From contig JBAZNY010000002.1 in assembly GCA_041649025.1 (NCBI GenBank), positions 70,694-134,693 on the forward strand: 64,000 bases of DNA, in the 5' to 3' direction. The DNA is from Bdellovibrionales bacterium (GTDB lineage: Bacteria; Pseudomonadota; Alphaproteobacteria; UBA9219). Within the stretch, counting starts at the first letter, position 1, and each line of letters opens with the position of its first letter. The notes under the pieces were generated by a model. The model ran no database searches. It worked only from the letters and a program-made list of their open reading frames with translations, and was not told the origin of the DNA. This document shows, piece by piece, positions 12,870 through 45,653 of the stretch. Made by a program: the position numbers and the translations under genes.

Positions 12870-13430
12870 TTACGAATCCAATCGCCATAACTCAAGCCTC
12901 CAGGTTTTCCAAAGTGGCGTTGGATAGCTCTTGGAGTCGGGGTATCTTTCGCGATTTTTTTTCACGATCTCAATATACGTTTTGATCTTCACATGCATGT
13001 TATCAGAAGCTTCTTTTCTTATGCCTTCGGCATTAGGAGCTATTTTCCCATCCGAGTAGAATTGTGAAGAAATAATGTTTTGTGGATAGAAAGCTTCATT
13101 CACCGAATGGGCATACCACCCGAGAACAAGAGCCGAAACGGCAAGCCCGGAACCCAAAAAAATCAAACGCTGCTCGCCCGTAGCGGACATCCCCCCTGCC
13201 AAAAGAGCCGCGGCAGTGATAATCCCGACTGTAAATCCTGCAACACCTTTTAGGCCTAAAGGCTTTACTACCTCATCCGCAGCGGCGCAAAAAGCTCCGG
13301 CAACAGTCTCCAAAGCCTTTTCTTTGGAAAGGCCTAACTTTTCCAACTCTTCCCGATAACCATATTGCGTCAAAAACTTATAAAGATTATCGCCTTGCTC
13401 GGCTTGTCCCAGATTAAAAAGAGCCCCCAT
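12870..13430 (-). CDS. hypothetical membrane protein
   Basis: 186 aa ORF with a central hydrophobic segment (GFTVGIITAAALLAGG...LGSGLAVSALVLGWY). No recognised motif. Confidence 0.4.
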   Translation of the reverse strand: MGALFNLGQAEQGDNLYKFLTQYGYREELEKLGLSKEKALETVAGAFCAAADEVVKPLGLKGVAGFTVGIITAAALLAGGMSATGEQRLIFLGSGLAVSALVLGWYAHSVNEAFYPQNIISSQFYSDGKIAPNAEGIRKEASDNMHVKIKTYIEIVKKNRERYPDSKSYPTPLWKTWRLELWRLDS

Positions 13431-13583
13431 ATCAATCTCCTTAAAATAATTTCCAAAAATTCTAATATAAAAAACATGGGCTGTCTCTATACCTTTTTAC
13501 AAAAAAACGCTTAAAAATAAGGGCTTGTTTGCAAGAACTAATAATTCTAATTTCCACCAATTCATATTTCTGGAGATACTCAC

Positions 13584-14354
13584 GTGCACGACGTTCCCGA
13601 TGACCATCCCCGCGCCGCCTCTTTGCGCTTACGACACGCTATCGCAGAGCATCACGCGACGGGGCTTGTCGCGGAAACGGGACCCATCGCGCACGGGCGC
13701 GGCGAAGCGTTCGATTACATATTGGGCGAGGCAACCCCTGCCCCCGTTTTGGACGACATCACATCGGCGGCGGCGCTTCTGCTTCAAGCAAAATATCCCG
13801 TCATCAGCGTCAACGGAAACACGGCGGCTCTTGCGCCGGAGTCTCTTATCGCCTTGGCGGACACAATTCCGGCCAAGCTGGAGGTCAACGTTTTCTATGG
13901 CCGGACGGCGAACCGCGAAAAAATGATCGCGGAGTTTCTTCAGTCGCACGGAGCGAAGGACGTGCTAGGCGTCAATGCAAAGGCGCGCGTTCCGCACCTG
14001 ACGTCAGCGCGCGCCAGCGTGGACAAGGACGGCATCGCCAAAGCCGACGTCGTGATCGTTCCCCTTGAGGACGGCGACAGGACGGAAGCCCTTATCGCGT
14101 GGGGAAAGAAAGTCATTTCCATCGACCTTAACCCCCTGTCGCGCACGGCGCAGGCCGCAACCATCAACATCTGCGATAACGTCACGCGCGCGCTGCCCTT
14201 GCTGGCAAAAGCCGTCGAAGAACTCAGGGGCAATGAGCGGGAAATCGCCAAGCGCGTCAAAGGCATCGATAACGCATTGACAAGCGCGCGAGTCCTTGCC
14301 TTCATGCGGGAACGGCTCGCCACATTAGAAAAACAGCTTTGCCGTAAACGCTGA
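13584..14354 (+). CDS. archaeal-type phosphopantothenate synthetase homologue (COG1701 / 4-phosphopantoate--beta-alanine ligase family)
   Basis: A GTG start, then HPRAASLRLRH, IAHGRGEAFDYILGE, PVISVNGNTAALAP, LEVNVFYGRT, VIVPLEDGDRTEALI and SIDLNPLSRTAQAA. As I recall them, these are the hallmark blocks of the archaeal PPS family. Confidence 0.75.
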   Translation: MHDVPDDHPRAASLRLRHAIAEHHATGLVAETGPIAHGRGEAFDYILGEATPAPVLDDITSAAALLLQAKYPVISVNGNTAALAPESLIALADTIPAKLEVNVFYGRTANREKMIAEFLQSHGAKDVLGVNAKARVPHLTSARASVDKDGIAKADVVIVPLEDGDRTEALIAWGKKVISIDLNPLSRTAQAATINICDNVTRALPLLAKAVEELRGNEREIAKRVKGIDNALTSARVLAFMRERLATLEKQLCRKR

Positions 14355-14372
14355 AAACAAAGGGAATTGCAA

Positions 14373-15185
14373 ATGCTTTTAGCCCTGGACGTCGGAAACA
14401 CGAATGTCGCGATGGGATTTTATCGCGGGCGCGGCAAGGACGCCAAGCTTGTCGCGGATTGGCGCCTCAGCACCATCAGAACCCGCACGGCGGACGAATA
14501 CGGCGCGGTCGTGCTTGGCTTTCTGATTTCAAGCGGCCTGAAATTGGAAGACGTCAAACACGTCGCCATTTCGAGCGTCGTGCCGCAGACCAACAGAGAC
14601 CTGACCGAATTCTCCCGCCGCTATTTTCATACCGAGCCGTTTTTTGCCACCGCCGATGCGGATTTGGGCATGAAGATACGCTACAACACGCCGCCCGCCG
14701 TCGGGGCCGACCGCATATGCAACGCAGTGGGCGCTTTCCATAAATACGGCGGCCCTTTGATCATCATCGACTATGGTACGGCGACAACGTTCTGCGCCAT
14801 CGCCAAAAACGGCGATTATCTGGGCGGCGCTATCGCCCCGGGCATCAACATTTCTATGAACGCTCTGTTTCAAAGCGCGGCAAGGCTTTATCCCGTCGAG
14901 TTCAAAACGCCGCCTGCGGCCATCGGCAAAAACACCATCCACTCCATGCAAAGCGGCGCGGTTTTCGGCTTTGCCGGACAAACGGATGCTTTGGTCAGAC
15001 GCATTCAAAAAGAGCTTGGCGGAAAAAAGGCCAAGGTCATTGCGGCCGGAGGGCTTGCCACGCTCATTAAGCACGAAAGCGAAACCATCGACGTCGTCGA
15101 TCAAATGATCACGCTGGAGGGCCTTCGGATTTTGTTCGAGCGGCACACGGAAAAAGCCGCCAAAAAGAAGCAGAAAAAGAAATAA
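14373..15185 (+). CDS. coaX: type III pantothenate kinase
   Basis: MLLALDVGNTN, IIIDYGTATTF and GGLA motifs are present. The ATG at 14373 is preferred over the TTG at 14367. The tail is lysine-rich. Confidence 0.9.
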   Translation: MLLALDVGNTNVAMGFYRGRGKDAKLVADWRLSTIRTRTADEYGAVVLGFLISSGLKLEDVKHVAISSVVPQTNRDLTEFSRRYFHTEPFFATADADLGMKIRYNTPPAVGADRICNAVGAFHKYGGPLIIIDYGTATTFCAIAKNGDYLGGAIAPGINISMNALFQSAARLYPVEFKTPPAAIGKNTIHSMQSGAVFGFAGQTDALVRRIQKELGGKKAKVIAAGGLATLIKHESETIDVVDQMITLEGLRILFERHTEKAAKKKQKKK

Positions 15186-15338: not shown

Positions 15339-15432
15339 GGAGACGTGGCCGAGTGGCTGAAGGCGGCGGTTTGCTAAACCGTTATACGTTTGAAAAGATG
15401 TATCGAGGGTTCGAATCCCTCCGTCTCCGCCA
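15339..15432 (+). tRNA. tRNA-Ser (anticodon GCU)
   Basis: Acceptor ggagacg/cgtctcc, anticodon loop ttGCTaa, a long variable arm, T-arm gaggg-ttcgaat-ccctc and an encoded CCA. Confidence 0.9.
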
Positions 15433-15478
15433 ATTACCTTTTGTCCGACCCGGACACATGGGTAACAGAACGTACCGG

Positions 15479-16028
15479 CTACATAGGTGACACCCGCGAG
15501 CCAAACGGGTTGTCCAGGGGTTGCAAGATCTTCTCCTCCAAGTCGATATAACCTGGATCATAATCCATAAAACTGACAAGCCAAGTGCCTTCTTCGACCT
15601 CTTTGAGGCCGACAGCTTGTCCTGCGAACACGGTCGATAAATTGATTTTTTTTGCGGTGTAAACAGATCCGACCACAATGGGTAACGTTCGCGCTCAGGT
15701 CGTGGAGAGGATACACAAGTTCTGGAAGACCAGTATACACGCGTGGGGAAGGTTTATAAATCTCGGCCGGATACTTCATGCCCAAGGCTTCATGCGGACG
15801 GTCGTTGTTGTATTCTTCGATGAAGTCATCGAACTTGGCTTGCTGTTGGAAGATATTCTCTCCGGGTGGACGCGTAGCTTCTTTCTTCAGCGTCAGATGC
15901 ATGCGTTCATGGCGACCATTCTGTTGAGGATGTGCGCAAATACTGCTCATCCCGCGCTCGTGAGCCAACACAAAGCAAATATTTTTGGGCCGATCTCGCA
16001 ATTTCAGTGTTTGCGGCAATAATCTCAT
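15479..16028 (-). pseudogene. IS481-like DDE transposase remnant (N-terminally truncated and frameshifted)
   Basis: Two overlapping frames carry HPQQNGRHERMH (P-Q-x-N-G-x-x-E-R motif), NNDRPHEALGMKYP and the C-terminal LAGQAVGLKEVEEGTWLVSF. There is no N-terminal HTH or catalytic DD region. Confidence 0.75.
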
Positions 16029-16494
16029 GCGCAGATGTTAGCAGACGAAGCGTTTTGCCTTTTGCGGGCTGCTGGACAAGCGCGCTCGGTTCGAGCTTAA
16101 AAAAAGCTGCAAGGGCAGCAAGCGTTCCTGCGCGGCAACTATAGTTTGGATTGCTTTCCAGATTGCGAATAGTTTTTAAAGAAATTCCGGTTAGATCAGA
16201 TAGCCTTTCCTGCGAAATACCGCTGAGTTTGCGGTATCGCTTTATTTCAATGAAGCTTGGTTTGATTTTTCCGTCGTCTTTAATGACAAGCTCAGGAGCT
16301 AATTGATCTTGAGTATCTTTTTCGCGCTTATGTTGACGCGCAATGTCCGTAAGCATTGAAAAAGATTCTTCTTCACCAAAATCGCCGTTTTTAAAAACCT
16401 CCTTCTGGTTTTCAACACTGGCCCCTTGGTCCAACGGCTCTCGAAGCAAACTCCGGTTCCCCTGTACCATGACTTGCCACACCGCCCCGCGCAC
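15907..16494 (-). CDS. XRE-family HTH protein, apparently 3'-disrupted by the IS remnant (start uncertain)
   Basis: HTH segment LSGISQERLSDLTGISLKTIRNLESN. The ORF runs out of frame into the transposase fragment. It is paralogous in type to 28694-29344 and 30192-30857. Confidence 0.4.
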   Translation of the reverse strand: MRGAVWQVMVQGNRSLLREPLDQGASVENQKEVFKNGDFGEEESFSMLTDIARQHKREKDTQDQLAPELVIKDDGKIKPSFIEIKRYRKLSGISQERLSDLTGISLKTIRNLESNPNYSCRAGTLAALAAFFKLEPSALVQQPAKGKTLRLLTSAHEIIAANTEIARSAQKYLLCVGSRARDEQYLRTSSTEWSP

Positions 16495-17245: not shown

Positions 17246-18225
17246 GACTTCCCCCTGAACTTTTTCGCGAAGCTGTCCGTCGCTCTCACCGTCGCATCCA
17301 AAATGCCCGGATCGTTGTAAACGTGCGCAGCAACCTCCACCATGACCCATTGTGAAGAAGGCCAATTCTTGTGGAGTTCCCATGCCGTCGTCGCTGGGCA
17401 TACGGCATCGTAGCGTCCTTGAATAATTATGCCGGGAATGTTCTTCAGCTTTTTGGCCCCCTTAATAAGAGCACCTTCCTTCATAAATCCCGCGTTCAGG
17501 AAGTAATGGTTCTCAATAGCGGCGAAAGCTAACGCGAATTTATCTCTGGATTTATCGATAGTGTATTCCCCCTTCGGGATAAGGCACATCGCATCGCCTT
17601 CCCAGTCAGACCATGCCCGCGCAGCTTCAATTCTTGTTGCCCGCTTCTTTGAGGCCAATCTTTTCCGATAGGATTTCATAATGTCTTTTTGCTCGGCACG
17701 CGAAAGGATGCCGATAAAGCGATCCCAAGCTTCTGGAAACAGATAAGAAGCGCCCTCCTGATAAAACCACTTCAGCTCTTTCTTTCTGAGCATAAAGGTG
17801 CCTCTTAATATCAGACCGAGTACATTGCGCGGATACCGCTCAGCATAAGCCAAGGCAAGAGTGCTTCCCCATGAGCCTCCCAACATGATCCATCGATTAA
17901 TCCCCAAAAGATGGCGAAGCTTCTCAATATCGGCGACAAGATGCTGTGTTGTGTTTGCCTTCAAACATGTATGAGGGGTGCTGCGCCCACAGCCGCGTTG
18001 ATCAAATAGAATTATCCGATACTTCTTTGGATCAAATAAGCGCCGATGGTCTTTACCGCAGCCGCCGCCAGGCCCACCATGTATAAAGAGAGCTGGAATT
18101 CCGTTCGGATTGCCGCACGTCTCCCAATAAATCTTGTGTCCGTCCCCCACGGAAAGCATGCCGTGATCGTAGGGTTCGATGGAAGGAAAGAAGGAACGCA
18201 AAGATGGGGTTTTATGGGAATTCAT
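17242..18225 (-). CDS. prolyl-aminopeptidase-family (S33) alpha/beta hydrolase
   Basis: YWETCGNPNGIPALFIHGGPGGG, FDQRGCGRS and the nucleophile elbow GGSWGSTLALAYAERYP. The start is taken at MNSHKT, giving an ATGA overlap at 18222-18225. Confidence 0.8.
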   Translation of the reverse strand: MNSHKTPSLRSFFPSIEPYDHGMLSVGDGHKIYWETCGNPNGIPALFIHGGPGGGCGKDHRRLFDPKKYRIILFDQRGCGRSTPHTCLKANTTQHLVADIEKLRHLLGINRWIMLGGSWGSTLALAYAERYPRNVLGLILRGTFMLRKKELKWFYQEGASYLFPEAWDRFIGILSRAEQKDIMKSYRKRLASKKRATRIEAARAWSDWEGDAMCLIPKGEYTIDKSRDKFALAFAAIENHYFLNAGFMKEGALIKGAKKLKNIPGIIIQGRYDAVCPATTAWELHKNWPSSQWVMVEVAAHVYNDPGILDATVRATDSFAKKFRGKS

Positions 18226-18773
18226 GGCGATGGAGCATCCTTTTTTAAACCAATGTGAAAAGCGCGGGAGGGTTCTTTCATGAACTTTGAAACTTCTGGA
18301 TCGCTGTGACAACTATAACCGGCATCATATGTTTTTGCATGCCCCATGTTGCACCAGAAAGAAATCTGGCCTATCCGCATCATCGGATAAACCCTAAAGG
18401 GATGAGCTGACACGATTTCCAGCGTCCACTGGTGACAAGAGCCGGTGTGCCCAAGGTTTGCAGAAATCTGTAAAAACAAGCCGAGCCGCCCCAGAGAGCT
18501 GCGTCCGATTAAGGACATTGCGTATTCTTTGCTGCCCAGAGTCTCATGGGTATGTCCCAGATAGACCGTGTGAGGCTCTAGGACATAGCCCTCCTCAGGA
18601 ATTTTTATCTCTTTGAATCCATAAAGGCGTTCTTCGTCATATTCGGGAACAAGAAGCTTCGGCCCAAGCCTATAGTTATAGCTGTTGGGATTGATTTGAT
18701 CGTCGTTGAACGGAACAATCGTAATATCGCCCGCATCGACCATCTTCTTAATTTCTGTTCCCGTCAAAATCAT
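18222..18773 (-). CDS. dCTP deaminase/dUTPase-fold protein, divergent copy 1
   Basis: MILTGTEI, NPNSYNYRLG, GRSSLGRLGLFL and WTLEI. The Glu equivalent to E. coli Dcd E138 is retained, and DPGW is replaced by HTGS. Confidence 0.7.
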   Translation of the reverse strand: MILTGTEIKKMVDAGDITIVPFNDDQINPNSYNYRLGPKLLVPEYDEERLYGFKEIKIPEEGYVLEPHTVYLGHTHETLGSKEYAMSLIGRSSLGRLGLFLQISANLGHTGSCHQWTLEIVSAHPFRVYPMMRIGQISFWCNMGHAKTYDAGYSCHSDPEVSKFMKEPSRAFHIGLKKDAPSP

Positions 18774-18778
18774 ACTAG

Positions 18779-19870
18779 TTACGCAAAATCCACGGCAAGT
18801 TTTGTAAGTCTCTTATTAAGTATCGCCCTGTCAGGCCCCATTTTTTCTTTCAAATCTTGATAAGAGGAAACGTATGCCGCGATTAAGCCGCCAGCGCTTT
18901 TAGATGCCGTTCCGAAGCAGACCTTTTCCATCTGTTTTGATGCGCGCTCAAGATCGGCTGGCGTTGACATCGTGCGAGGCAATAGCTCGGCGATGCCCTG
19001 AAGATAACTGCGCAAAACCCGTCCGCGCCCGTCCGCAACGGGTTTTATTCCCGATCTCATAATGAAAGTGCTTGCAGCAACGGCATCCGCGATTTTCAAT
19101 TCGTCGTTGGTTTCAGTCGGCAGAAATTCTGCGATAGGAGCTGCATGAATGGGGGTCGGCAGCCCCGTCATTCTGCTGATTGCCGTCTCCACCCCGAAAG
19201 CCATTTCCACCCCAAGCTTTCGTTCACCAGCTTCGATGATGATAATATTTCCAATATCCCCGTACTCCTCGGAATATGGCCCTTTGATTGCAATGTTGCA
19301 GTTTCGCCCCGTTATGCCGTCAATGCCAAATTTATGCGTGTAGTAAACGGGTTCTTTCGTGTCGAACACCAAATACTGGTCGAGCCCAAGGTTTTTCCAG
19401 AAATCAACCAGATCAACGTCCGAGCTGGCGATATGAATCTTGATGGTGTTTGGGTTCAAACACAGCCGTTCCGTCAAAAACTGCCAGAAAAGTTTGGATA
19501 CTTTTTCGACATCATCATATTGCGACAGCGTCCCTGTGCTGAGAAACATGGATGACCAGTTGGGCACATAATTATTGTCTTGAATTCGCCTGGAGTTTTG
19601 CGTCCGCAAACAATCTTGAACCATAAACAGGCCGTTAGGAGGAATGCTCCCGCTAAGAAGAACCGGCTTCAAAGTGCTTATCGTTGAGCCGGTAAAAAGA
19701 ACAGAAGCATCATCCTTAGGAACTAATTTTCCGGCAGGAGCTTGTGAAAACCCATTCTCCAGAAAGAATGACTGAAAATGTGTCGAGAACTCGTTTCTCA
19801 ATCTGCGCAATATCGTTTTGTCGTCGTAATCCTCTATCGCGCGCGTTAGAAGGGAATTATAGTTTGTCAT
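18779..19870 (-). CDS. stand-alone AlaRS catalytic-core-like protein (class IIc aaRS paralogue)
   Basis: 363 aa, collinear by eye with the AlaRS N-terminal domain: FQSFFLENGF.. (vs [10 protein letters not shown]), LVPKDDASVLFTGSTI (vs [16 protein letters not shown]), QDCLRTQN (vs QKSVRAGG), and VEMAFGVETAISRMTG (vs [16 protein letters not shown] in the alaS of this window). No tRNA-recognition, editing or C-Ala domains. Confidence 0.6.
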   Translation of the reverse strand: MTNYNSLLTRAIEDYDDKTILRRLRNEFSTHFQSFFLENGFSQAPAGKLVPKDDASVLFTGSTISTLKPVLLSGSIPPNGLFMVQDCLRTQNSRRIQDNNYVPNWSSMFLSTGTLSQYDDVEKVSKLFWQFLTERLCLNPNTIKIHIASSDVDLVDFWKNLGLDQYLVFDTKEPVYYTHKFGIDGITGRNCNIAIKGPYSEEYGDIGNIIIIEAGERKLGVEMAFGVETAISRMTGLPTPIHAAPIAEFLPTETNDELKIADAVAASTFIMRSGIKPVADGRGRVLRSYLQGIAELLPRTMSTPADLERASKQMEKVCFGTASKSAGGLIAAYVSSYQDLKEKMGPDRAILNKRLTKLAVDFA

Positions 19871-19873
19871 AAT

Positions 19874-20419
19874 TTATGGCTCCGGCTTTTGTTGTGCACT
19901 CTTCTTAAAATCCCTAAATACTTCGGAAGACCTTGGCCCATTTGCCCCCTGATATTTGCCTTTGTAGAGAACGATCTCTCCCTTCGGAACCCAGAAGGAC
20001 ACTTGCCCGACGAGCATTCCTGGATAAAGCCGAATGGGCAGCGTTGCGTAGAGCTGAAACGACAGATTTCCGTGCATACCGAGATCGACGAGATCGGCTG
20101 TTACATGAACAAACAGCCCAAGCCGAGCGATGCTGGAACGCGCGTGAATAATTGGGACAAAGTAGTCGCTTCCAACTTTTTCCTGTGTATGTCCCACAAG
20201 AAAATCCCCCTTCTTCATCAAGATTCCCTTTTCATCTGCGATGATCTCTCGGAACTCCGGCGGATTTCGGGGATCGATAACTGGCGATGTGTACTGGATG
20301 AACTTATTGCCCAGCCGCAGATCATATGAATTTGTCGTCGCCCGTTCAGGATCGAAGGGGCAAATTTCAATCTTTCCCAAGTTCCACTGATTGATAATTT
20401 CTTTTCCGGTCAAAATCAT
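19874..20419 (-). CDS. dCTP deaminase-like protein, copy 2 (catalytic Glu replaced by Gln)
   Basis: MILTGKEI, TNSYDLRLGNKF, ARSSIARLGLFVHVTADLVDLG and RLYPGMLVGQVSF are close to canonical Dcd. The VLEF position reads SFQL. Confidence 0.7.
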   Translation of the reverse strand: MILTGKEIINQWNLGKIEICPFDPERATTNSYDLRLGNKFIQYTSPVIDPRNPPEFREIIADEKGILMKKGDFLVGHTQEKVGSDYFVPIIHARSSIARLGLFVHVTADLVDLGMHGNLSFQLYATLPIRLYPGMLVGQVSFWVPKGEIVLYKGKYQGANGPRSSEVFRDFKKSAQQKPEP

Positions 20420-20493
20420 CGTCGTCTCTATCGCTTGTTAAAATATACCCCGCAGTCGTTTGAATAACCGCAACTGCGGGGCCATTATTATAT

Positions 20494-21594
20494 TTATGGC
20501 GCAGGGCCTTCTTTTCTCTTCTTTTCCCATTGGAGCTTTTTCAGCCAAACGGGCTCATTCTGACGCGGCTTAAAGGAAACGCACAAAGGAACAAACTCAC
20601 CAAAATGATTCCCCTTGTTCTGATTGGTGCACGGAGTGTCCTTGGTCATGTCGTGGCCAAGAAGTTCATTCGTCGGCGTGTTGTTCCAATAGATTTTTTT
20701 GCTATCGTAAAAACCGATGCCGTAAGGAGTCCCAATCATGAGAGAGCAAAGACGGAGCATCCCATTCGGAAAAGCTAGAATACGATCGAACTGCTTGGCG
20801 GAGCAGTATCCATAATATTCCTTGTTTCTCTCAAATTCCTCCTTGACCGTAACGCACTGGGGCATCCGAACATCGATGCCCTTCTCTGTCTCTTTGTACT
20901 TTTGCACTTCTGCAAAGGCCTCCATGTATTCCTTGACGCTGGTATTGATATTATTTGACCAAACGTCGCGCGGAATTCCGCCCTTGAACAAATCATGCAT
21001 GTTGAGCGTCTTGACCCCAAGACCCTTCATAAATTCGATCATGTTGATAAGAGCGAGCTGTCCGTTTTCGGCTTGTGCAGTAAGCCCTTTGTGCACGCAG
21101 CTTGTTACGTGAACGTTGTAGCCCTTTTCGATGGCTTTCTTGATGTTTGAGGTACAGTTTTTGAAGCTACCTTTGCCACGGATGGCATCGTTCATTTCCT
21201 CCGTATAGCCGTCCAGGCTGAACGTAATTTCATCAAGCTCGCGGAAATAGGGATTGTCGAGCAAGGACGGATTGAACATCCCGTTCGTATCGATGCGAAC
21301 GTGCGAATACCCCATTTGCTTCGCTTCATGAATGAGTTCCGGCAGCTTCTTGTATAAAGTCGGCTCTCCTCCCATAAACGTCATCTTAATTGCGCCAAGT
21401 TCGCGCATATTTTTCATGAGATTTAACGCGTCGCCATATTCCATTTCCTTTTTCTGAAGCTGGAATGTGAGTTCAGGCTTGTACAAGCACTGCACGCACC
21501 TCAAATTGCAGGTGTCAGTGAGATACATAAAAACCTGTCCAATTTTATTGTTGAACGCCTGATAAAATTGTTCGTCAATTTCCATTTCGCTCAT
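20494..21594 (-). CDS. radical SAM enzyme with a Cys-rich C-terminal region
   Basis: CNLRCVQC (CX3CX2C) near the N-terminus, then MTFMGGEPTLY, VRIDTNGMF and ITFSLDG. There are additional C-terminal cysteines, possibly an auxiliary cluster domain. Confidence 0.75.
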   Translation of the reverse strand: MSEMEIDEQFYQAFNNKIGQVFMYLTDTCNLRCVQCLYKPELTFQLQKKEMEYGDALNLMKNMRELGAIKMTFMGGEPTLYKKLPELIHEAKQMGYSHVRIDTNGMFNPSLLDNPYFRELDEITFSLDGYTEEMNDAIRGKGSFKNCTSNIKKAIEKGYNVHVTSCVHKGLTAQAENGQLALINMIEFMKGLGVKTLNMHDLFKGGIPRDVWSNNINTSVKEYMEAFAEVQKYKETEKGIDVRMPQCVTVKEEFERNKEYYGYCSAKQFDRILAFPNGMLRLCSLMIGTPYGIGFYDSKKIYWNNTPTNELLGHDMTKDTPCTNQNKGNHFGEFVPLCVSFKPRQNEPVWLKKLQWEKKRKEGPAP

Positions 21595-24807: not shown

Positions 24808-26835
24808 TCAAAGCGCGCTAGTTAATGACAGCAGAGGAAACACCGGTTTTTTCAAGCGAGCCCTTAGTTCATTGAAGTGTTTTCCAGCAAGATCAAACCC
24901 CCCTTTGCTCAGCATCGCGGAACTAATAAAATAGCCATCCCCTTTAACATTCTGCTCATCAACTGCTTTAGCGATGTCATCATGCGTAAGGAGACCAGCA
25001 ACACAGATATTTCCGCCAAAGTGTTGGTTAGACGCGGCAATTATGCGTAAATTACGAACTTTTTCATCAGGACGAAGCAGCTCCGTTGCTGCGTCTAAAA
25101 AAGGCTTCATGATAGAGCTTGTGACAAGAACGGGTTGTTGCAATTCATACTGCCGTTGGTGCGCAGCAATACGCCGGAAAATTGAGAAATCCACATCGTC
25201 ATTCATGAGGATTCCCCATGTTCCGACCTTCTTATCAACCAGCGTTCGCGCCCGCTTCAGTGACTTATAGGCAGAAAGCTCCACATCTCTTTGCATTCCC
25301 CTCGGGTCTCGCACAGCGACGACCATCTTGTTGGCTTGAAGATCATTTAATAGCTGAAGTGCTTCGGTTCGTGACCGTGGAGTTTTCCCATTAACTTCGA
25401 TGATTGTTGATCCCGCTTCGATGCCAGCTTGATCGGCGTTTGATCCTTCAATGACATCTTCTATCGTTGGCGTAAGCCCAGTTCGATTTAGCAATCCTAC
25501 CGTTACAATTATGGCTGTTTTGACAGATGGGCGTAGAGCGGTGACAAATGAATCAATCCGTGCCAATTCTTCTGGTGACAAAAGCAGTTTTGGATTGTGA
25601 TGAAGCGTGCCCGCCGGAAGAGCAACTCGTATATATGACGTCGGCTCATACTTGTCCGCATAACGAATTGTATGCTCGATGTCCTCTAATGGTATCCAAC
25701 TCGTGGCTGCAACAAGAGAAACATCAAACTGAATTCCCAAATCGTGCATTAGCGGTAATGATTGAATAGCAACTTCATGTTGTTCAGGTCTGCCCCCAGG
25801 CATAAGTATTTTTCTGTAGGCAGGGTCCGCGCTGTTCAGCGAGACTTGGAACAGGACTTGCTGGCGAAGCTGATCGTCTTCTGCAATTGCCTTAAGAAGC
25901 TTCTGTTTTAGGTTTCCGCCATGTGTCAGGATGGGGACTTGCGCCTTAGGATCAGCGGCGCATATAAGCTTCAGAACCTTTAGAAATTCAGGATGTTCCG
26001 TTGGCTCCCAATCCATCAGCGCATAACGTAACGGCGGATGCCCAAAACGAGTATTTGCGTCGTAGGAATTTAGAGCGTCCTTAATGTCATCAAGCGATCT
26101 CGCCCATCCGCGCGGGTATCTGACCGTCGAAAAACCTCGATCAACATAACAGAACCGGCATCCCTGATTGCAGTTATTCCATACGAAAGGAATTGCTGCA
26201 TTTTGAGCCGACCCAATAGGAACTTGAAGGGCTTGGGCATCAACGACTTTTGCCACACCTGGTTCAGAAAAATCAAATGTATTCAAAAGCCACTTCCGTA
26301 CCACAGCCTCAAGCGTATCGTTATTATGAACACTCGGTAATGGAATTGCCGGAGAAGGAAATGTTGCCCCGCCAAGAATATGTTGTACCGCCGCTACGCG
26401 CCCATTTAGCACACCCCCTTCATTGAGAAGTTCCACATCGTGCAATAGGGCAAAAGAAATATCTCCCCAATTGATTTGGGCTTTACCTGGATTAGATGCA
26501 GCTCCTGCTTCGAAAGAGCCTTTTCCTAAACGCATATAGGCATCGCATAACAATACTATGGGAGATTCAAACCCAAAAAGTTGACCCTGAACGCTTTGCA
26601 TTTCTTGTTGAGGGATAGGTTTGCTGAGATCGTTAGTACTATTTGAAACTCGAATACGATCAGGAACTAGGATATTGCCGTGAGCATCAAAAAACTGCGA
26701 AAACAGTATGACTGCTTGTGCCAAACCAAGAAAACGAGATTCTTTCGACCCAGCATCGTCAAGAAGACCATATTTCTGAATTTCGATAGCCTTTATCGTT
26801 GAAGAAAATTGTTTTGGCAGCGCGTTATTTACCAT
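24808..26835 (-). CDS. radical SAM / PDZ / DUF512-like multidomain protein with an unassigned roughly 230 aa N-terminal domain
   Basis: CNQGCRFC (CX3CX2C) at about residue 232. A PDZ-like segment IEDVIEGSNADQAGIEAGSTIIEVNGK. The C-terminal FGGNICVAGLLTHDDI resembles DUF512. Confidence 0.6.
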   Translation of the reverse strand: MVNNALPKQFSSTIKAIEIQKYGLLDDAGSKESRFLGLAQAVILFSQFFDAHGNILVPDRIRVSNSTNDLSKPIPQQEMQSVQGQLFGFESPIVLLCDAYMRLGKGSFEAGAASNPGKAQINWGDISFALLHDVELLNEGGVLNGRVAAVQHILGGATFPSPAIPLPSVHNNDTLEAVVRKWLLNTFDFSEPGVAKVVDAQALQVPIGSAQNAAIPFVWNNCNQGCRFCYVDRGFSTVRYPRGWARSLDDIKDALNSYDANTRFGHPPLRYALMDWEPTEHPEFLKVLKLICAADPKAQVPILTHGGNLKQKLLKAIAEDDQLRQQVLFQVSLNSADPAYRKILMPGGRPEQHEVAIQSLPLMHDLGIQFDVSLVAATSWIPLEDIEHTIRYADKYEPTSYIRVALPAGTLHHNPKLLLSPEELARIDSFVTALRPSVKTAIIVTVGLLNRTGLTPTIEDVIEGSNADQAGIEAGSTIIEVNGKTPRSRTEALQLLNDLQANKMVVAVRDPRGMQRDVELSAYKSLKRARTLVDKKVGTWGILMNDDVDFSIFRRIAAHQRQYELQQPVLVTSSIMKPFLDAATELLRPDEKVRNLRIIAASNQHFGGNICVAGLLTHDDIAKAVDEQNVKGDGYFISSAMLSKGGFDLAGKHFNELRARLKKPVFPLLSLTSAL

Positions 26836-36013: not shown

Positions 36014-38965
36014 ATGGCTGCAGTTATCATTCTGGACGAAGTCAAATGCGTCGGATGCAACAAGTGTATTGCAGAGTGCCCTGTCGAAGGGGCCAACGTT
36101 TCCTATCTCAAAGACGGCCGCAGTAAAGTTCGGACTAATCAGGATGCCTGCATTCTTTGCGGTCGATGCGTCGACGTATGCGACCACGGAGCCCGCGATT
36201 ATCGGGACGATACGGAAGCCTTTTTCAGAGATTTGGCCAACGGGGAGCGAATTTCCGTCATTGCCGCGCCCTCTATCCGTTTTAATATTTCCAATTACAA
36301 AAAGCTGTTCGGCTACCTGTCGCAACTCGGAAGCAATCTGATCTACGACGTTTCGTTCGGCGCCGACATATGCACGTGGAGCTATCTTAGGTGCGCCGAG
36401 CAAAAACATCTCGATTCCTTCATCTCCCAAGCTTGTCCGGCCATTGTTTCGTACATTGAAAAACATTGCCCCGAGCTTATCGACCGCCTTGCCCCCTCTC
36501 ACAGCCCGATGCTTTGCACCGCCATTTATTTGAGAAAATACAAGAACATAACGAACAGAATCGCCTTTCTTTCCCCCTGCATCGCCAAGGAGCAAGAGTG
36601 CATCGATACCGACGGCCTTATTTCCTACAACGTCACTTTTAAAAAAATTAAAGCGTATCTTTCAAAAAACAACATCGCCCTCGATATGTATCCCGAAAAG
36701 GATTTCGACGACATCGGATGCGGCTTGGGCGTCGCCTTCAGCCGCCCCGGAGGCTTGCGTGAAAACGTCGAATACCATACGAACAACCAGGCTTGGATAC
36801 GTCAGGTCGAAGGCGTCCGCCCCGCCTGCGATTATCTGAGAAGATATGCCGCACGCGTGAAGACGGGAGAAAAATTACCTTTCCTTATCGACATTCTGAA
36901 TTGTTCGCACGGATGCAATCTTGGAACGGGCACCTGCAAAGAAATCAACGTCGACGACATCGACGCAAAAACGGATCAGCTCAAGAAAGAAAAGCTGAAA
37001 GAGAAGGAAATCGATAGATCGGGAAAAATCATCTACTCTTTGTTTGAAACGTTCGACAAAGAGCTTAGCCTTCAGGATTTTTCGCGAACGTACAAAAACA
37101 AATTGGTTTCGGGCAAACAAAGAGAGTTTACCGAAAGAGAATACGATAAAATGTTCAATGATCTCTACAAGTTCGACGCTGAAAGCCGCCGCATCAATTG
37201 TTTTGCCTGCGGCTATGGCAACTGCAAGGACTTCGCCAAAGCCGTTCTCAGCGGAGACAACCACCCCGGCAATTGCATCAACTACAACCGCGCCGTGGCC
37301 AAAGCGGAACATCAGGAAGTAATGCAACAAAAGCTGAAGGCCGAGGCGGCGACAAGGGCGAAAAGCGACTTTTTAGCCAATATGAGCCATGAAATCCGCA
37401 CGCCTCTCAACGCGGTTCTCGGCATGACCCAGCTTCTTCTCGACACGGAGATGTCTCAGGAACAGCACACATGGGCCCAAATCATCAACCAATCCGGAGA
37501 AAGCCTTCTTGGGTTGATCAACGACATTCTCGATCTCACGAAAATCGAAGCCGAACACCTCAATCTCGAAAGCGTAGACTTTAATCTGTGCTCCGCCGTT
37601 GCCGAAGTGACCGACACGCTCTCCATCAAAGCCCGCGAAAAAGGTCTGGAGATGATCGTTTCTTTCGTCGGCGAGGTACCGGAATATATTAAAGGAGACC
37701 CCGGCAGATTTAAGCAGATTCTTTACAACCTGATCGGCAACGCGACAAAATTCACCCAGAACGGACATATACTGACGCGGATCGTTTCGGAAAAAGTCAA
37801 TAATGACATAATGCTTAAAATTGACGTTGAAGACACGGGCATCGGCATTCCGGAAGAGAAGCTCGCCTACATCTTTGAAAAATTCGCGCAGGGCGAAGAG
37901 TCGACAACGCGCCGTTTCGGCGGAACCGGACTTGGCTTGGCAATCTCGCAAAAGCTTATTCGTCTTATGGGCGGCGAAATCAACGTTACAAGCAAGGAGG
38001 GCCTGGGATCGACATTCTCTTACACCATCCGCATGCGCCCGGGTTCCTCTGAAAACACCATTCAGGAAGTACCCGATGTCTCCCTTAAAAATAAGCGCGC
38101 CCTTATCGTCGACGATTATCTTTTTGGCTGCGAAATCACCAAAGGATGCCTGGATGGTTTTGGCATCAGAGCCGACATCGCAACGACGAAAAAAGAAGCC
38201 CTACAGAAGGTTCTGGACGCGCTGAAAGCCAAGGATCCTTATGATTTTATGATCCTTGATTATAAGCTCGGCGAAGAGAACGGGCTTACGCTATGCGACG
38301 ATATCGCGTTCGCGAAAGGCAGCGCCCTTATGCCTATGATTATTATGGTCACGGCGTACGGATACTTTTCAACGCTTGAAAATCTGGCGGCTCACGGCGT
38401 TATGGGCTTTATGGTCAAACCGTTCTATCCCGCTCAAATGGAAACGACGCTCAAGCTGATTTTGAACGGACGATTGAAAAACATTCCTTTACCGGTCGTC
38501 ACGCGCCACACCGTGTGCAAGATTTTGCATGACGATCTGGCTTCGGAAAATTTAGAAACGGAATCATTTAAAGGCACAAAAATTCTCGTCGTCGAGGACA
38601 TGCCCTTCAATCAGCTTCTTATGACTAAAATTTTGAATAAATTCGGGTGCAACGTCGATATGGCGTCGGACGGATCACAAGCACTGCAGAAAGTCAAAAA
38701 AGTTGATTACGATATCGTCTTTATGGATTGCCAGATGCCGGTTATGGACGGCTATGTTGCAACGCGAGAAATTAGAGAAATTGAAAATAAACTCAATAAA
38801 CACACGCCCATTATCGCCCTGACCGCCGACGCCATGACGGAAGATCGCGAGAGGTGTTTTCAAGCCGGCATGGACGATCATCTTGGCAAGCCCTTTAAAC
38901 AGGAGCAGATTGTGGAGATGATTAAAAAATACAAACCCAAAGATAATTCAGGAAACCCCGCTTGA
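36014..38965 (+). CDS. hybrid sensor histidine kinase with an N-terminal 2x[4Fe-4S] ferredoxin plus [FeFe]-hydrogenase-like domain, HisKA, HATPase_c and two receiver domains
   Basis: CVGCNKCIAECP and CILCGRCVDVC are ferredoxin motifs. H-cluster-like motifs are SQACPAIV (L1 variant), SPCIAKEQE (L2, PCxxKxxE) and NCSHGCNLGTG (L3, CxxGCxxG). H-box SHEIRTPLN; N/G boxes NLIGNATKF and DTGIGI...GGTGLGL. REC domains have ILDYKL and VFMDCQMPVMDG. Confidence 0.85.
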   Translation: MAAVIILDEVKCVGCNKCIAECPVEGANVSYLKDGRSKVRTNQDACILCGRCVDVCDHGARDYRDDTEAFFRDLANGERISVIAAPSIRFNISNYKKLFGYLSQLGSNLIYDVSFGADICTWSYLRCAEQKHLDSFISQACPAIVSYIEKHCPELIDRLAPSHSPMLCTAIYLRKYKNITNRIAFLSPCIAKEQECIDTDGLISYNVTFKKIKAYLSKNNIALDMYPEKDFDDIGCGLGVAFSRPGGLRENVEYHTNNQAWIRQVEGVRPACDYLRRYAARVKTGEKLPFLIDILNCSHGCNLGTGTCKEINVDDIDAKTDQLKKEKLKEKEIDRSGKIIYSLFETFDKELSLQDFSRTYKNKLVSGKQREFTEREYDKMFNDLYKFDAESRRINCFACGYGNCKDFAKAVLSGDNHPGNCINYNRAVAKAEHQEVMQQKLKAEAATRAKSDFLANMSHEIRTPLNAVLGMTQLLLDTEMSQEQHTWAQIINQSGESLLGLINDILDLTKIEAEHLNLESVDFNLCSAVAEVTDTLSIKAREKGLEMIVSFVGEVPEYIKGDPGRFKQILYNLIGNATKFTQNGHILTRIVSEKVNNDIMLKIDVEDTGIGIPEEKLAYIFEKFAQGEESTTRRFGGTGLGLAISQKLIRLMGGEINVTSKEGLGSTFSYTIRMRPGSSENTIQEVPDVSLKNKRALIVDDYLFGCEITKGCLDGFGIRADIATTKKEALQKVLDALKAKDPYDFMILDYKLGEENGLTLCDDIAFAKGSALMPMIIMVTAYGYFSTLENLAAHGVMGFMVKPFYPAQMETTLKLILNGRLKNIPLPVVTRHTVCKILHDDLASENLETESFKGTKILVVEDMPFNQLLMTKILNKFGCNVDMASDGSQALQKVKKVDYDIVFMDCQMPVMDGYVATREIREIENKLNKHTPIIALTADAMTEDRERCFQAGMDDHLGKPFKQEQIVEMIKKYKPKDNSGNPA

Positions 38966-39045
38966 ATGGACTGGTGCAGGACGCGCCAACGGCGTTGGGT
39001 CTTAATGTTTGCTTTAACTCTTGAAGAAATGCACGGATCCCTTTC

Positions 39046-40446
39046 ATGCGCAAAGAAACCGACATTTTAGGAAACGTAGAAATCGATGATTCCGCTTTGT
39101 GGGGCATTCATACAGAGCGCGCCCTGCAAAATTTTGCCGTTTCAGAACGGCGTGTTCCTTTTTCTCTGATTGCAGCCATCGTCACAGTCAAACAGGCGGC
39201 GGCACAGGCCAACGGAGAGCTGGGATATCTTCCACAAAACATCGCCGACGTCCTTGTGGCAGCCTGCGGCAAAATTTGCGGAAATGAAAACGACACGATG
39301 GCTTCTTTTCCCCTCGACGCGTTGCAGGGCGGCGCCGGCACATCCACGAATATGAACGTCAACGAAGTCATCGCCAATGTCGCGCTTCAGGCGATGGGGA
39401 AAAAAGCAGGCGCTTACGACGCCCTCCATCCGCTTAACCACGTCAATCTGCATCAATCGACGAACGACGTGTATCCGACGGCTCTCAGGATCGCCGCCAT
39501 ATCCGGCCTGAGGTCGCTTTCGGACGCGCTCGCAAAACTTCAGGGCGCGATGCAGAACAAGGAAAAAGAATTTCACGACATCCTTAAAATGGGGCGCACG
39601 GAATTGCAGCCTGCCGTGCCGATGACGCTGGGACAGGAGTTTTCCGCCTATTCCGAAGCCGTCGCGCGCGACCGCTGGCGCACGTTTAAATGCGAAGAAC
39701 GCCTGCGCATGGTCAACATAGGAGGAACAGCTATCGGAACGGGTCTGACGGCGCCCAGGGACTATATCTTCCGCGTCATTGAAATACTGCGCTCGCTCAC
39801 GGGCATGGGGCTTGCGCGAAGCGAAAACGTCATCGACGGCACGGCAAACGCCGACGTTTTTGTCGAAGTTTCCGGCATTTTAAAAGCCGCCGCGACGACG
39901 ATGGCCAAAATCGCGGGAGATTTGCGCCTTCTGCATTTTTTGGGCGAAATCGCCCTGCCGCCCATGCAAACCGGATCGTCCATCATGCCGGGAAAAATTA
40001 ATCCCGTCATGACGGAAAGCGTGATGCAAGCAAGTCTTGTCGTCCGCGCTAACGATTTTATGATCGCCGAGTGCGCGGCACACGGTACGCTTCAGATCAA
40101 CGAGTTTATGCCGCTCATTGCCAGCGCCCTTCTTGAATCCATCGATATCCTGAAGAATTCAGCCCTTGCGCTCGCGCCGCATATCGACGCTATCAAGGCC
40201 GACGCCGAACGCTGCCGCAGTTTCGTCGAAAACAGCCCCGCCCTGATGACGGCTTTGCTGCCGCACGTCGGCTATGAAAAGACGCTGCTTCTGATGAACG
40301 AATTCAACGCCCTTAAAAAGAAAAACGCCGAAACTTTCATTACGAGCTTTCTCGCCGAAAAACTAGGCAACGAGATCGCCAAAACCGTTTTATCCACGAC
40401 GAATTTTATCGGCCTTGGATACGTGAAAAAGGAACATAAAGAATGA
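39046..40446 (+). CDS. aspA: aspartate ammonia-lyase family (class II fumarase/aspartase superfamily) protein
   Basis: Collinear by eye with AspA: DILG...YGIHTERALQNF, GGAGTSTNMNVNEVIAN, HQSTNDVYPTA, KMGRTELQPAVPMTLGQEF and the signature GSSIMPGKINPV. Confidence 0.8.
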   Translation: MRKETDILGNVEIDDSALWGIHTERALQNFAVSERRVPFSLIAAIVTVKQAAAQANGELGYLPQNIADVLVAACGKICGNENDTMASFPLDALQGGAGTSTNMNVNEVIANVALQAMGKKAGAYDALHPLNHVNLHQSTNDVYPTALRIAAISGLRSLSDALAKLQGAMQNKEKEFHDILKMGRTELQPAVPMTLGQEFSAYSEAVARDRWRTFKCEERLRMVNIGGTAIGTGLTAPRDYIFRVIEILRSLTGMGLARSENVIDGTANADVFVEVSGILKAAATTMAKIAGDLRLLHFLGEIALPPMQTGSSIMPGKINPVMTESVMQASLVVRANDFMIAECAAHGTLQINEFMPLIASALLESIDILKNSALALAPHIDAIKADAERCRSFVENSPALMTALLPHVGYEKTLLLMNEFNALKKKNAETFITSFLAEKLGNEIAKTVLSTTNFIGLGYVKKEHKE

Positions 40447-41699
40447 TCGACCAGACTCCCAACACTCCGAAAGCGATGCGCCTGCATATTGGAATCATGG
40501 GCAGAATGAACGTCGGAAAGTCTTCGTTCTTGAATATGGTGGCCGGACAAGATGTCGCCATTACTTCGCCTGAGGCTGGAACGACGACGGATGTCGTTGA
40601 AAAGACTATGGAATTGTTGCCTTTGGGGCCTGTCGTTTTGCTGGATACGGCGGGGATCGACGACACGTCCGCGCTCGGCATCGCGCGTGTCGATAAGGCG
40701 AAAAAAGCCGTCCAGCGCATGGATGTTCTTGTGCTTATCGTCACGCCCAACGACTGGAGCGAATTCGAAGACGCCTTGGTGAACGAGGCTCATGCCCACA
40801 ACATTCCGGCGCTTGTCGTCATCAACAAGACCGATTTGGCGGAACCTTCGACCGATTTTCTCGCCCTTCTGGACGTCAAAAAACTTTCTTGGGTCGCAGG
40901 AAGTTCGACCGACGAATCCAAAAAAGAAGATTTCAAAAATGAATTCAAGCAAAGCCTGCGCGCTATGCTTCCCCGCCTTTTCGCCGCGCCGCAATCCCTT
41001 ATCGGCGACTTGCTGCCGCCCGGAGGCATGGCGGTTTTTGTCGTTCCCATCGATCTTGGCGCGCCGCAGGGGCGCCTTATCGTTCCTCAAGTGCAGGCGT
41101 TGCGCGATCTTCTCGACAACGACGCGTCAGCCCTTGTCGTCAAAGACAGGGAATACGCCGCGACGCTTGCGCGGCTTAAAAAAATGCCCGATCTCGTCGT
41201 GTGCGACTCTCAGGTGGTCGCGCGCGTCGTCGCGGATACGCCTGAAAGCGTTCCCCTGACGACTTTTTCCATTCTTTTCTCGCGCTTTAAGGGAGATCTC
41301 GCGCTGCAAGCCGAAGGCGCGGCAGCGCTTGAAAAATTGAATGACGGAGACAAGGTTCTGATTGCGGAAGGATGCTCGCACCATCCGATGGAGGATGACA
41401 TCGGGCGCATCAAAATCCCGCGCTGGCTTAAGCAATATAGCGGAAAAAACATTACGATTGAGTCTTCCGCAGGGCACGATTTCCCCGCGAATTTACAGGA
41501 TTATAAGGTCGTCATTCATTGCGGCGGCTGCGTCATGACAAAGCAGGAAATGTCGTCGCGCCTGTCCATCGCCAAAGGAAAATCCGTGCCGATGACAAAC
41601 TACGGCATTGCGATTTCCGCCCTGCAGGGGGTTTTGAAGCGCGCCCTGTCCCCCTTCCCCGCCGCGCTCGCAGCCTATGAGAAGGCAAAGAAATTTTAG
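40443..41699 (+). CDS. hydF: [FeFe]-hydrogenase H-cluster maturation GTPase HydF
   Basis: GTPase motifs GRMNVGKSS, TTD, DTAG and NKTD. C-terminal cluster motif CSH...(about 50 aa)...HCGGC, i.e. CxH-x(n)-HCxxC. The ATGA overlap with the aspA stop is at 40443-40446. Confidence 0.85.
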   Translation: MIDQTPNTPKAMRLHIGIMGRMNVGKSSFLNMVAGQDVAITSPEAGTTTDVVEKTMELLPLGPVVLLDTAGIDDTSALGIARVDKAKKAVQRMDVLVLIVTPNDWSEFEDALVNEAHAHNIPALVVINKTDLAEPSTDFLALLDVKKLSWVAGSSTDESKKEDFKNEFKQSLRAMLPRLFAAPQSLIGDLLPPGGMAVFVVPIDLGAPQGRLIVPQVQALRDLLDNDASALVVKDREYAATLARLKKMPDLVVCDSQVVARVVADTPESVPLTTFSILFSRFKGDLALQAEGAAALEKLNDGDKVLIAEGCSHHPMEDDIGRIKIPRWLKQYSGKNITIESSAGHDFPANLQDYKVVIHCGGCVMTKQEMSSRLSIAKGKSVPMTNYGIAISALQGVLKRALSPFPAALAAYEKAKKF

Positions 41700-45109: not shown

Positions 45110-45490
45110 TCACTTCTTGGTAGCGATCTTCTTGCCGGCAATCGGCCTGGCCTTGCCCTTGCGGGTGCGCGCATTGGTATGCGTGCGTTGTCCGCGGACG
45201 GGAAGGCCCTTACGATGGCGCAGGCCGCGGTAGCAGCCCAAATCCATCAAACGCTTAATGTTCATTGAAACTTCACGGCGCAAATCGCCTTCGACTTTAT
45301 AGTTCTTGTCGATGTCTTCGCGCACTTTCAGAATTTCGCCTTCGGTCAACGTATTGACTCGCTTTGTCGGATCGATGCCGACACGGGCGCAGATTTCCAG
45401 GGCATTCGTCGGCCCAATGCCGAAGATGTAACGTAACGCAATGTGCAACGGCTTTGCCGCCGGAATATTAACGCCTGCAATACGAGCCAC
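45110..45490 (-). CDS. rpsM: 30S ribosomal protein S13
   Basis: (V)ARIAGVNIP...ALRYIFGIG...[26 protein letters not shown]. The GTG start at 45490 is preferred over the long upstream ORF extension. Confidence 0.93.
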
Positions 45491-45653
45491 TTTGTTCTCC
45501 AAAAAAACAACAAAAACACCGCATTGGCGAGAGATGCCTCGCGCGCCAAAACGGAGTTCATTTGCATAAGTTTTTAGCCCCAATCCCGAAGCTAAGGTGG
45601 CGCAGTATAGGGATTGATCGACCAGAGTCAAGCACGGAAGAAGCATTTAGGGG

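Follow-up and report, generated by a model that had tools for sequence, protein, structure and literature searches.

Pairing of an archaeal-type phosphopantothenate synthetase homologue with CoaX-family kinases in bacteria: a candidate hybrid route from pantoate to 4'-phosphopantothenate

The 64,000-nucleotide stretch of contig JBAZNY010000002.1 analysed here (hereafter the window, or 64-kb window) encodes a pair of adjacent genes on its forward strand: a homologue of phosphopantothenate synthetase (PPS), the ligase of the archaeal pathway to coenzyme A, and the bacterial type III pantothenate kinase (PanK), CoaX. The order in which phosphorylation and condensation follow each other on the way from pantoate to 4'-phosphopantothenate is treated as a marker that sets bacteria and eukaryotes apart from archaea. 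Neither enzyme family is new, and members of both carry annotations already; what is new, and conserved, is their combination as a PPS/CoaX pair. It fits neither the archaeal system of pantoate kinase (PoK) and PPS, no PoK being in view, nor the bacterial system of PanC and PanK, no PanC being in view. We favour, with a confidence that falls a little short of even, the reading that the pair is an operon that turns pantoate into 4'-phosphopantothenate by an archaeal/bacterial hybrid route. The proposed route would have these steps: the CoaX-family kinase, with its ASKHA fold, would phosphorylate the 4-hydroxyl of pantoate in place of the archaeal PoK of the GHMP fold; the PPS homologue would then ligate beta-alanine to 4-phosphopantoate at the expense of ATP. 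In the lineage of the window the canonical CoaX would probably also retain its pantothenate kinase activity for salvage, while in other lineages a rare divergent Pan_kinase paralogue would act as the apparently PPS-dedicated partner. We infer both the order of the reactions and pantoate as the kinase substrate from the comparisons below.

Judged by its profile and structure matches, the open reading frame at 13584-14354 is a full-length member of the PPS family. The six conserved blocks that the original prediction had read in it are all present in the order given there: HPR (residues 8-10), GRGEAFDY (38-45), PVISVNGN (72-79), LEVNVF (99-104), PLEDGDRTEAL (160-170) and DLNPLSRTA (181-189). The membership in COG1701 deduced from them was borne out by profile searches: the Pfam model PF02006 (PPS_PS) matches with 223.4 bits (cut-off 26.4), the NCBIfam subfamily model NF010324 with 312.2 bits (cut-off 227), and residues 2-251 align with the PPS of Thermococcus kodakarensis (PDB 3wdk_A) with an E value of 1.4e-65. 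The archaeal equivalog NF041123 (4-phosphopantoate--beta-alanine ligase) is narrowly missed, with 280.5 bits (cut-off 300; the homologue from Lyngbya reaches 266.7 bits), and hence NCBI uses the ambiguous name ‘phosphopantothenate/pantothenate synthetase’. Both proteins of the pair are already named in GenBank, on a 185,791-bp contig of a metagenome-assembled genome, and close relatives carry the labels Rhodospirillaceae or Alphaproteobacteria.

The next forward-strand open reading frame after the PPS stop codon (14352-14354) encodes CoaX, in the orientation and with the short gap originally predicted: 12 nt if translation begins at TTG 14367 and 18 nt if it begins at ATG 14373. The ATG is the likelier start because AAGGGA lies in front of it at 14360-14365 and because the family profiles begin there. 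A terminator scan found no terminator-like hairpin between the two genes, and it is therefore probable that they are co-transcribed. The kinase matches PF03309 with 228.6 bits, passes two CoaX equivalogs (NF009855, 294.5 bits against 233; NF009848, 252.7 against 248), and aligns with Bacillus anthracis CoaX (2h3g) with an E value of 4e-70; a 100% identical public protein is named ‘type III pantothenate kinase’ (MFA4993962.1). The motifs DVGNTN, Y..GADR, DYGTATT and GKNT are intact in it, with Tyr100, Asp129, Thr132 and Thr184 kept; the roles of GADR, Asp129 and Thr132 in type III PanK are confirmed (PMC11315101). By its sequence the window CoaX is a canonical pantothenate kinase, predicted to phosphorylate pantothenate. 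As a separate observation on this family, four CoaX homologues of 336-346 residues (P0216, P0218, P0227 and P0234; 58-60% identical to that of the window) carry an N-terminal helix-turn-helix of the GerE/sigma-70 region 4 kind, which suggests DNA-binding CoaX fusions.

Comparative support for the hybrid reading comes from the identity of the kinase that stands beside PPS across loci. These were drawn from three sources: species-representative genomes; contigs of the closest protein matches; and a metagenome scan seeded with the bacterial PPS alignment. Loci with a PPS at least 57% identical to that of the window were taken as bacterial-type, with L104 and L105 added to them; the archaeal-type class (80 metagenome loci) was set by PPS identity (46-56%) together with the families of the neighbouring genes, not by taxonomy. 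All 15 non-redundant bacterial-type loci with readable neighbours (the window, L001-L005, L011, L013, L016-L020, L104 and L105) have a Pan_kinase (PF03309) gene beside PPS or at most 1.8 kb away. It usually lies 12-38 bp 3' of PPS; it overlaps PPS in L019, is upstream of it in L018, and in Lyngbya aestuarii (L016) stands 1.8 kb from it with coaBC in between. The flanks of these loci are completely different between lineages. The pairing has two exceptions only: L007, where a PPS fused to a GNAT domain is free of Pan_kinase neighbours over 8.5 kb on its upstream and 10 kb on its downstream side, and L021, where the contig ends at PPS. We also noted one locus (L102, 7484-8723, on a 1.83-Mb contig of the alphaproteobacterial metagenome-assembled genome GCA_037200005.1) in which the PPS before coaX is an 82-residue fragment; L102 is rich in broken reading frames, which could be due to pseudogenisation in a shrinking genome or to frameshift errors of the assembly.

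The archaeal-type loci present the converse picture: none of the 80 has a Pan_kinase gene, and in about 40 a GHMP-family kinase lies directly upstream on the same strand with a gap of a few bases. The gene order in these is GHMP kinase (PoK), PPS, then panB, panE and coaBC, and the neighbours in this class include archaeal markers such as PAC2. No GHMP kinase was found within 6-10 kb in any of the 15 bacterial-type loci, either by tblastn with archaeal queries, which could miss a very divergent PoK, or in the Pfam tables available for nine of them. In operons of the archaeal type PPS hence has a GHMP PoK at its side, and in bacteria a member of the CoaX family. Given that PPS needs a kinase, and that the GHMP kinase is swapped for a CoaX-family one in bacteria, a hybrid pathway is the most economical reading. 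In two loci, L105 and L019, panB is found 1.7-6.7 kb from the pair; pantoate would be made locally in such cases, which we count in favour of this reading. The 64-kb window itself holds no panB, panC (PF02569), panD, panE, GHMP kinase/PoK or coaBC, and the only bacterial locus with a panC within 10 kb of the pair was that of Lyngbya, in which panC-cmk follows at a distance of 2.8 kb downstream.

The Pan_kinase partners of PPS fall into two classes. Type A comprises canonical CoaX proteins with all the known motifs, seen in the clade of the window and in L018, L019 and L020; the kinases of L018 and L020 pass an NCBIfam equivalog cut-off, and that of L019 passes none (highest score 202 bits, cut-off 248). 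The members of type B, a divergent subfamily of Pan_kinase (L013, L016 from Lyngbya, L017, L104 and L105), are 35-40% identical among themselves and share about 25% identity with type A. They keep DxGN(S/T), GxDR and TGG; Tyr100 is replaced by Phe and the K+-binding Asp129 by a hydrophobic residue, and an insertion takes the site of GKNT, with no counterpart of Thr184. We take Tyr100 and Thr184, following UniProt/HAMAP annotation, to be ligands of the carboxylate end of pantothenate. Type B proteins pass only the broad model TIGR00671 and fail all the NCBIfam CoaX equivalogs, including PRK13331 (60 bits against 251), presumably the cyanobacterial CoaX model. A type B profile search among 5.8 billion proteins recovered only 16 clusters (P0241-P0256), of which at least seven appear to share a contig with a PPS match; two further ones whose loci were inspected come directly after PPS, in one case with a gap of 13 bp and in the other with an overlap of 8 bp. 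Among the members whose neighbourhood was read or matched, type B appears to occur only with PPS, and it looks like a kinase dedicated to it.

In a neighbour-joining tree of PPS, which is distance-based and carries no support values, all the Pan_kinase-linked sequences form one clade, with the exception of L019, which falls among the archaeal-type sequences and may represent a second, independent PPS/Pan_kinase association. The class of the partner is discordant with this tree, from which it follows that partners have been exchanged during evolution. These observations bear on a rival explanation, namely that PPS works with an unlinked GHMP PoK in the full archaeal route, CoaX serves salvage, and the two genes lie together owing to their common product, 4'-phosphopantothenate, and to shared regulation. 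It has a precedent in sponge-associated Poribacteria, for which PoK and PPS without PanK have been described (PMC7883664); both window proteins look canonical for their families; and, as an adjacent PoK is likewise missing from about half of the PPS loci of archaeal type, such adjacency is not obligatory. We nevertheless consider it unlikely: none of the 15 bacterial-type loci has a PoK-like gene within 6-10 kb, compared with about 40 of the 80 archaeal-type ones; type B kinases were met beside PPS only; and a strict and repeatedly re-established adjacency with Pan_kinase would be left unexplained. This adjacency is kept even where the flanks are reshuffled, the gene order is reversed or another partner subfamily has come in, and thereby implies a direct functional dependence.

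The active-site residues of PPS point in the same direction as the pairing. When 75 archaeal-type sequences, the solved enzyme included, were compared with 24 bacterial ones, every polar or charged position conserved in at least 90% of the former was found to be invariant in all 24 of the latter. In the numbering of the window protein these are: H8, R10, S13, R17, H37, R39, E41, D44, Y45, E49, S75, N77, N79, E100, N102, R107, R111, R143, D155, E162, D163, D165, R166, K175, D181, N183, S186, R187, D198 and R202, nine arginines altogether. The substitutions that distinguish the bacterial clade (L34P, A55V, L103V, I136V, A179S, T195N and V197C) are all conservative. Nothing in this comparison suggests that the bacterial PPS has lost the binding of a phosphorylated substrate.

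This weakens a second rival, raised in the original prediction as a PanC analogue: that PPS is a pantothenate synthetase acting on unphosphorylated pantoate and beta-alanine, with PF02006 as a non-orthologous replacement of PanC, and that CoaX then phosphorylates the pantothenate. That two consecutive steps are encoded side by side agrees with this scheme no less than with the hybrid one; it is parsimonious for CoaX, which is canonical in the window and has close relatives unlinked to PPS; and the window is without panC. The Pfam name of the family, moreover, includes ‘pantothenate synthetase’, reportedly after an earlier claim on Methanosarcina mazei MM2281, a protein said to be an archaeal pantothenate synthetase that rescues an Escherichia coli panC mutant. 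MM2281 belongs to the same family and poses the same question of pantoate versus 4-phosphopantoate, with the difference that it comes from an archaeon whose genome encodes PoK; if a bacterial PanK can act on pantoate, this too would account for the reported rescue. If the substrate phosphate were not bound, at least one loss among the conserved basic or polar residues of PPS would be expected, and there is none. The PPS of T. kodakarensis, too, is reported to have no pantothenate synthetase activity. Ordinary phosphorylation of pantothenate would hardly account for a divergent, PPS-exclusive kinase subfamily that lacks Tyr100 and Thr184, and PPS as a pantothenate synthetase would be redundant in Lyngbya beside a canonical panC-cmk. 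We thus regard this scheme as improbable.

The Lyngbya aestuarii cluster (L016 10001-15185; GCA_052546295.1) holds a PPS-GNAT gene, coaBC, a type B kinase and panC-cmk, and the presence of the canonical panC-cmk means that PPS there is not a simple PanC replacement. The cyanobacterial PPS homologues (also P0019-P0030) are fusions of about 405 residues with a C-terminal GNAT acetyltransferase domain. A relationship of this domain to PanM/PanZ was considered and dropped, as it gave generic acetyltransferase matches only, with no link to either.

The specificity of the canonical partner was approached by comparing 15 CoaX proteins of the PPS-linked clade with 90 unlinked relatives. The motifs DxGNT, GADR, Asp129-x-G-T-A-T-T and GKNT, as well as Tyr100, are found in all 15 linked members; the differences between the two sets are clade-specific substitutions alone, with the motif residues all kept. 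The position equivalent to R170 of B. anthracis CoaX is Arg in 90 of 90 unlinked and Pro in 15 of 15 linked proteins (P174 in the window, codon 14892-14894); this change may be a mere clade marker, since the corresponding residue is still Arg in L018 and is His in L019. CoaX proteins of other bacteria are 62-66% identical to that of the window (64% in Chthonomonadaceae), and no PPS was found near the two such relatives whose neighbourhoods were checked.

The hybrid route is accordingly to be weighed on both sides. For it stand the intact residue set of PPS, the loss from the PPS-exclusive type B kinase of residues taken to bind the carboxylate end of pantothenate, and the panC beside the Lyngbya cluster, which argues against PPS as a mere PanC substitute. 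The PoK of T. kodakarensis reportedly phosphorylates pantothenate too, so kinases that act on the pantoyl 4-hydroxyl can take both substrates. Several points weigh against it. The window CoaX is canonical by sequence, passing two equivalogs and being 64% identical to a CoaX unlinked to PPS, and its known motifs give no sign of a preference for pantoate. Our literature search turned up no type III PanK that phosphorylates pantoate, and we know of none. The ligand roles taken for Tyr100 and Thr184 are putative. A PoK may sit elsewhere in the genome, the search having covered the 64-kb window. Finally, much of the bacterial PPS clade may have descended from one linkage event, in which case the bacterial loci are not fully independent. 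The earlier suggestion that CoaX or a relative phosphorylates pantoate therefore gains from the conserved bacterial pairing, as set against PoK/PPS, and finds no sign of altered specificity at the motifs of the window CoaX. A broader proposal is that ASKHA-fold Pan_kinase enzymes are bacterial pantoate kinases, which with a horizontally acquired PPS would form a third, PanC-independent CoaX/PPS route, type B being a dedicated, hitherto overlooked pantoate kinase and canonical CoaX a bifunctional one; we put it forward tentatively, as plausible and on balance somewhat doubtful.

It could also be that the Pan_kinase partner is not an enzyme of the route at all but a ligand sensor or regulator of PPS, or that the bacterial PPS ligates other substrates. 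The CoaX of Mycobacterium tuberculosis is a pseudokinase that binds pantothenate and regulates the depupylation of PanB (PMC11626117). It resembles the window CoaX in being a Pan_kinase-family protein wired in a non-standard way into the pantothenate pathway. The type B kinases have no K+-binding Asp129, and the cyanobacterial PPS homologues carry their additional GNAT domain. However, the mycobacterial protein, which governs PanB turnover, is without the ATPase residues (PMC11626117), whereas the window CoaX keeps all the catalytic motifs: the Gly of DVGNT and the Gly pair of AAGGLA, whose loss marks the pseudokinase, as well as the catalytic Asp of GADR. Type B retains DxGN(S/T), GxDR and TGG, and the active-site residue set of PPS is unchanged. 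These features make a regulatory role or a different ligase substrate highly unlikely.

The hybrid route proposed here can be set beside three known systems. The archaeal PoK/PPS route (T. kodakarensis TK2141 and TK1686; PDB 3wdk/3wdl/3wdm) uses the same ligase family, of which the window protein keeps all the invariant residues, and in archaeal-type PoK-PPS-panB/panE-coaBC operons the ligase gene likewise adjoins a kinase gene. It differs in its kinase, a GHMP kinase (PF00288) rather than an ASKHA-fold Pan_kinase (PF03309), and in the placing of the kinase gene, which is upstream of PPS there and downstream of it in the window; panB, panE and coaBC are, further, outside the window operon. The host of the window is a bacterium, as is evident from the alanyl-tRNA synthetase, alpha/beta glycyl-tRNA synthetase, RpoA, ribosomal protein S13, RNase E, SMC and Obg that it encodes. 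The second system is that of ‘Candidatus Poribacteria’ (sponge-associated Entoporibacteria), with PoK and PPS present and PanK and PanC absent (Thomes & Lescure 2020, PMC7883664). In common with the window, an archaeal-type PPS is there found in a bacterial genome, probably by horizontal transfer (PMC7883664). In Poribacteria, however, PoK came along with it, while here PPS is in an operon with a bacterial kinase and no PoK is nearby; PPS, furthermore, coexists with panC in Lyngbya. The third is the classical PanC and CoaX route, of whose kinase family the window CoaX is a bona fide member; it differs in that a PF02006 ligase, not one of the customary neighbours, lies directly upstream of the window coaX and that the 64-kb window is devoid of panC.

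In the literature searched we found no description of a PPS/CoaX module; the sole paper found on a bacterial PPS (PMC7883664) states that no coexistence of the bacterial and archaeal routes had been described. The PPS/CoaX module, together with the cyanobacterial PPS that occurs with panC, indicates that one genome, and even one operon, can harbour both routes. Within the module, an ASKHA kinase seems to have taken over from the GHMP pantoate kinase in situ. If the proposed route holds true, the CoaX family would gain a further enzyme activity, cases of ‘missing panC’ in genome-based predictions of vitamin B5 auxotrophy would find an explanation, and the result would bear on inhibitor projects directed against PanC or CoaX.

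The features of the pair and of its non-coding surroundings are collected in Table 1. The upstream region carries GGAG at 13572-13575, 8 nt before the GTG start of PPS, and as the nearest gene on that side (12870-13430) is on the opposite strand, the promoter of PPS presumably lies between the two. A simple sigma-70 scan gave no forward-strand promoter match in 13431-13583, and an Rfam search returned nothing near the operon, neither riboswitch nor other regulatory RNA.

Table 1. Coordinates of the PPS/coaX pair and adjoining intergenic regions in the window.
Feature	Position	Strand	Remarks
AT-rich intergenic region 5' of PPS	13431..13583	+	contains the GGAG ribosome-binding site; sequence read
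PPS homologue (PF02006 / COG1701; GenBank MFA4993961.1)	13584..14354	+	256 aa, GTG start
Spacer	14355..14372	+	18 nt; AAGGGA as coaX ribosome-binding site; sequence read
Type III pantothenate kinase CoaX (PF03309; GenBank MFA4993962.1)	14373..15185	+	270 aa from ATG

The possibility that PPS and coaX lie on a horizontal-transfer island was considered and rejected: the composition is unremarkable, and the upstream synteny (FMN reductase, YgjP, SnoaL) is common to L011. The region 15339-16494, outside the pair, has a tRNA-Ser(GCU) directly 3' of coaX, followed on the minus strand by a fragment of an integrase core (rve_3; 15558-16028) and a helix-turn-helix protein (15907-16494). This region looks like a decayed mobile element, and the genes downstream differ in the otherwise syntenic L011.

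Elsewhere in the window, an odd cluster of four minus-strand genes (18222-21594) lies beside glyS/glyQ and may be a nucleotide-modifying or defence-type module. It comprises: two dCTP-deaminase-like proteins (18222-18773, a weak match, and 19874-20419, TIGR02274 with 108 bits); a 363-residue protein (18779-19870) that matches only the N-terminal part of the catalytic domain of alanyl-tRNA synthetase; and a radical SAM enzyme (20494-21594) with weak MoaA- and viperin-like matches. A 675-residue protein with radical SAM, PDZ and DUF512 domains is encoded on the minus strand at 24808-26835. The forward-strand region 36014-41699 encodes a 983-residue fusion of 4Fe-4S, [FeFe]-hydrogenase large-subunit, HisKA/HATPase and two receiver domains, which looks like a hydrogenase-like sensory histidine kinase; behind it come a Lyase_1 protein and HydF, a hydrogenase maturase. 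Upstream of rpsM (S13), the Rfam element Alpha_RBS (RF00140) is matched on the minus strand at 45458-45562, with 42.5 bits (gathering score 38).

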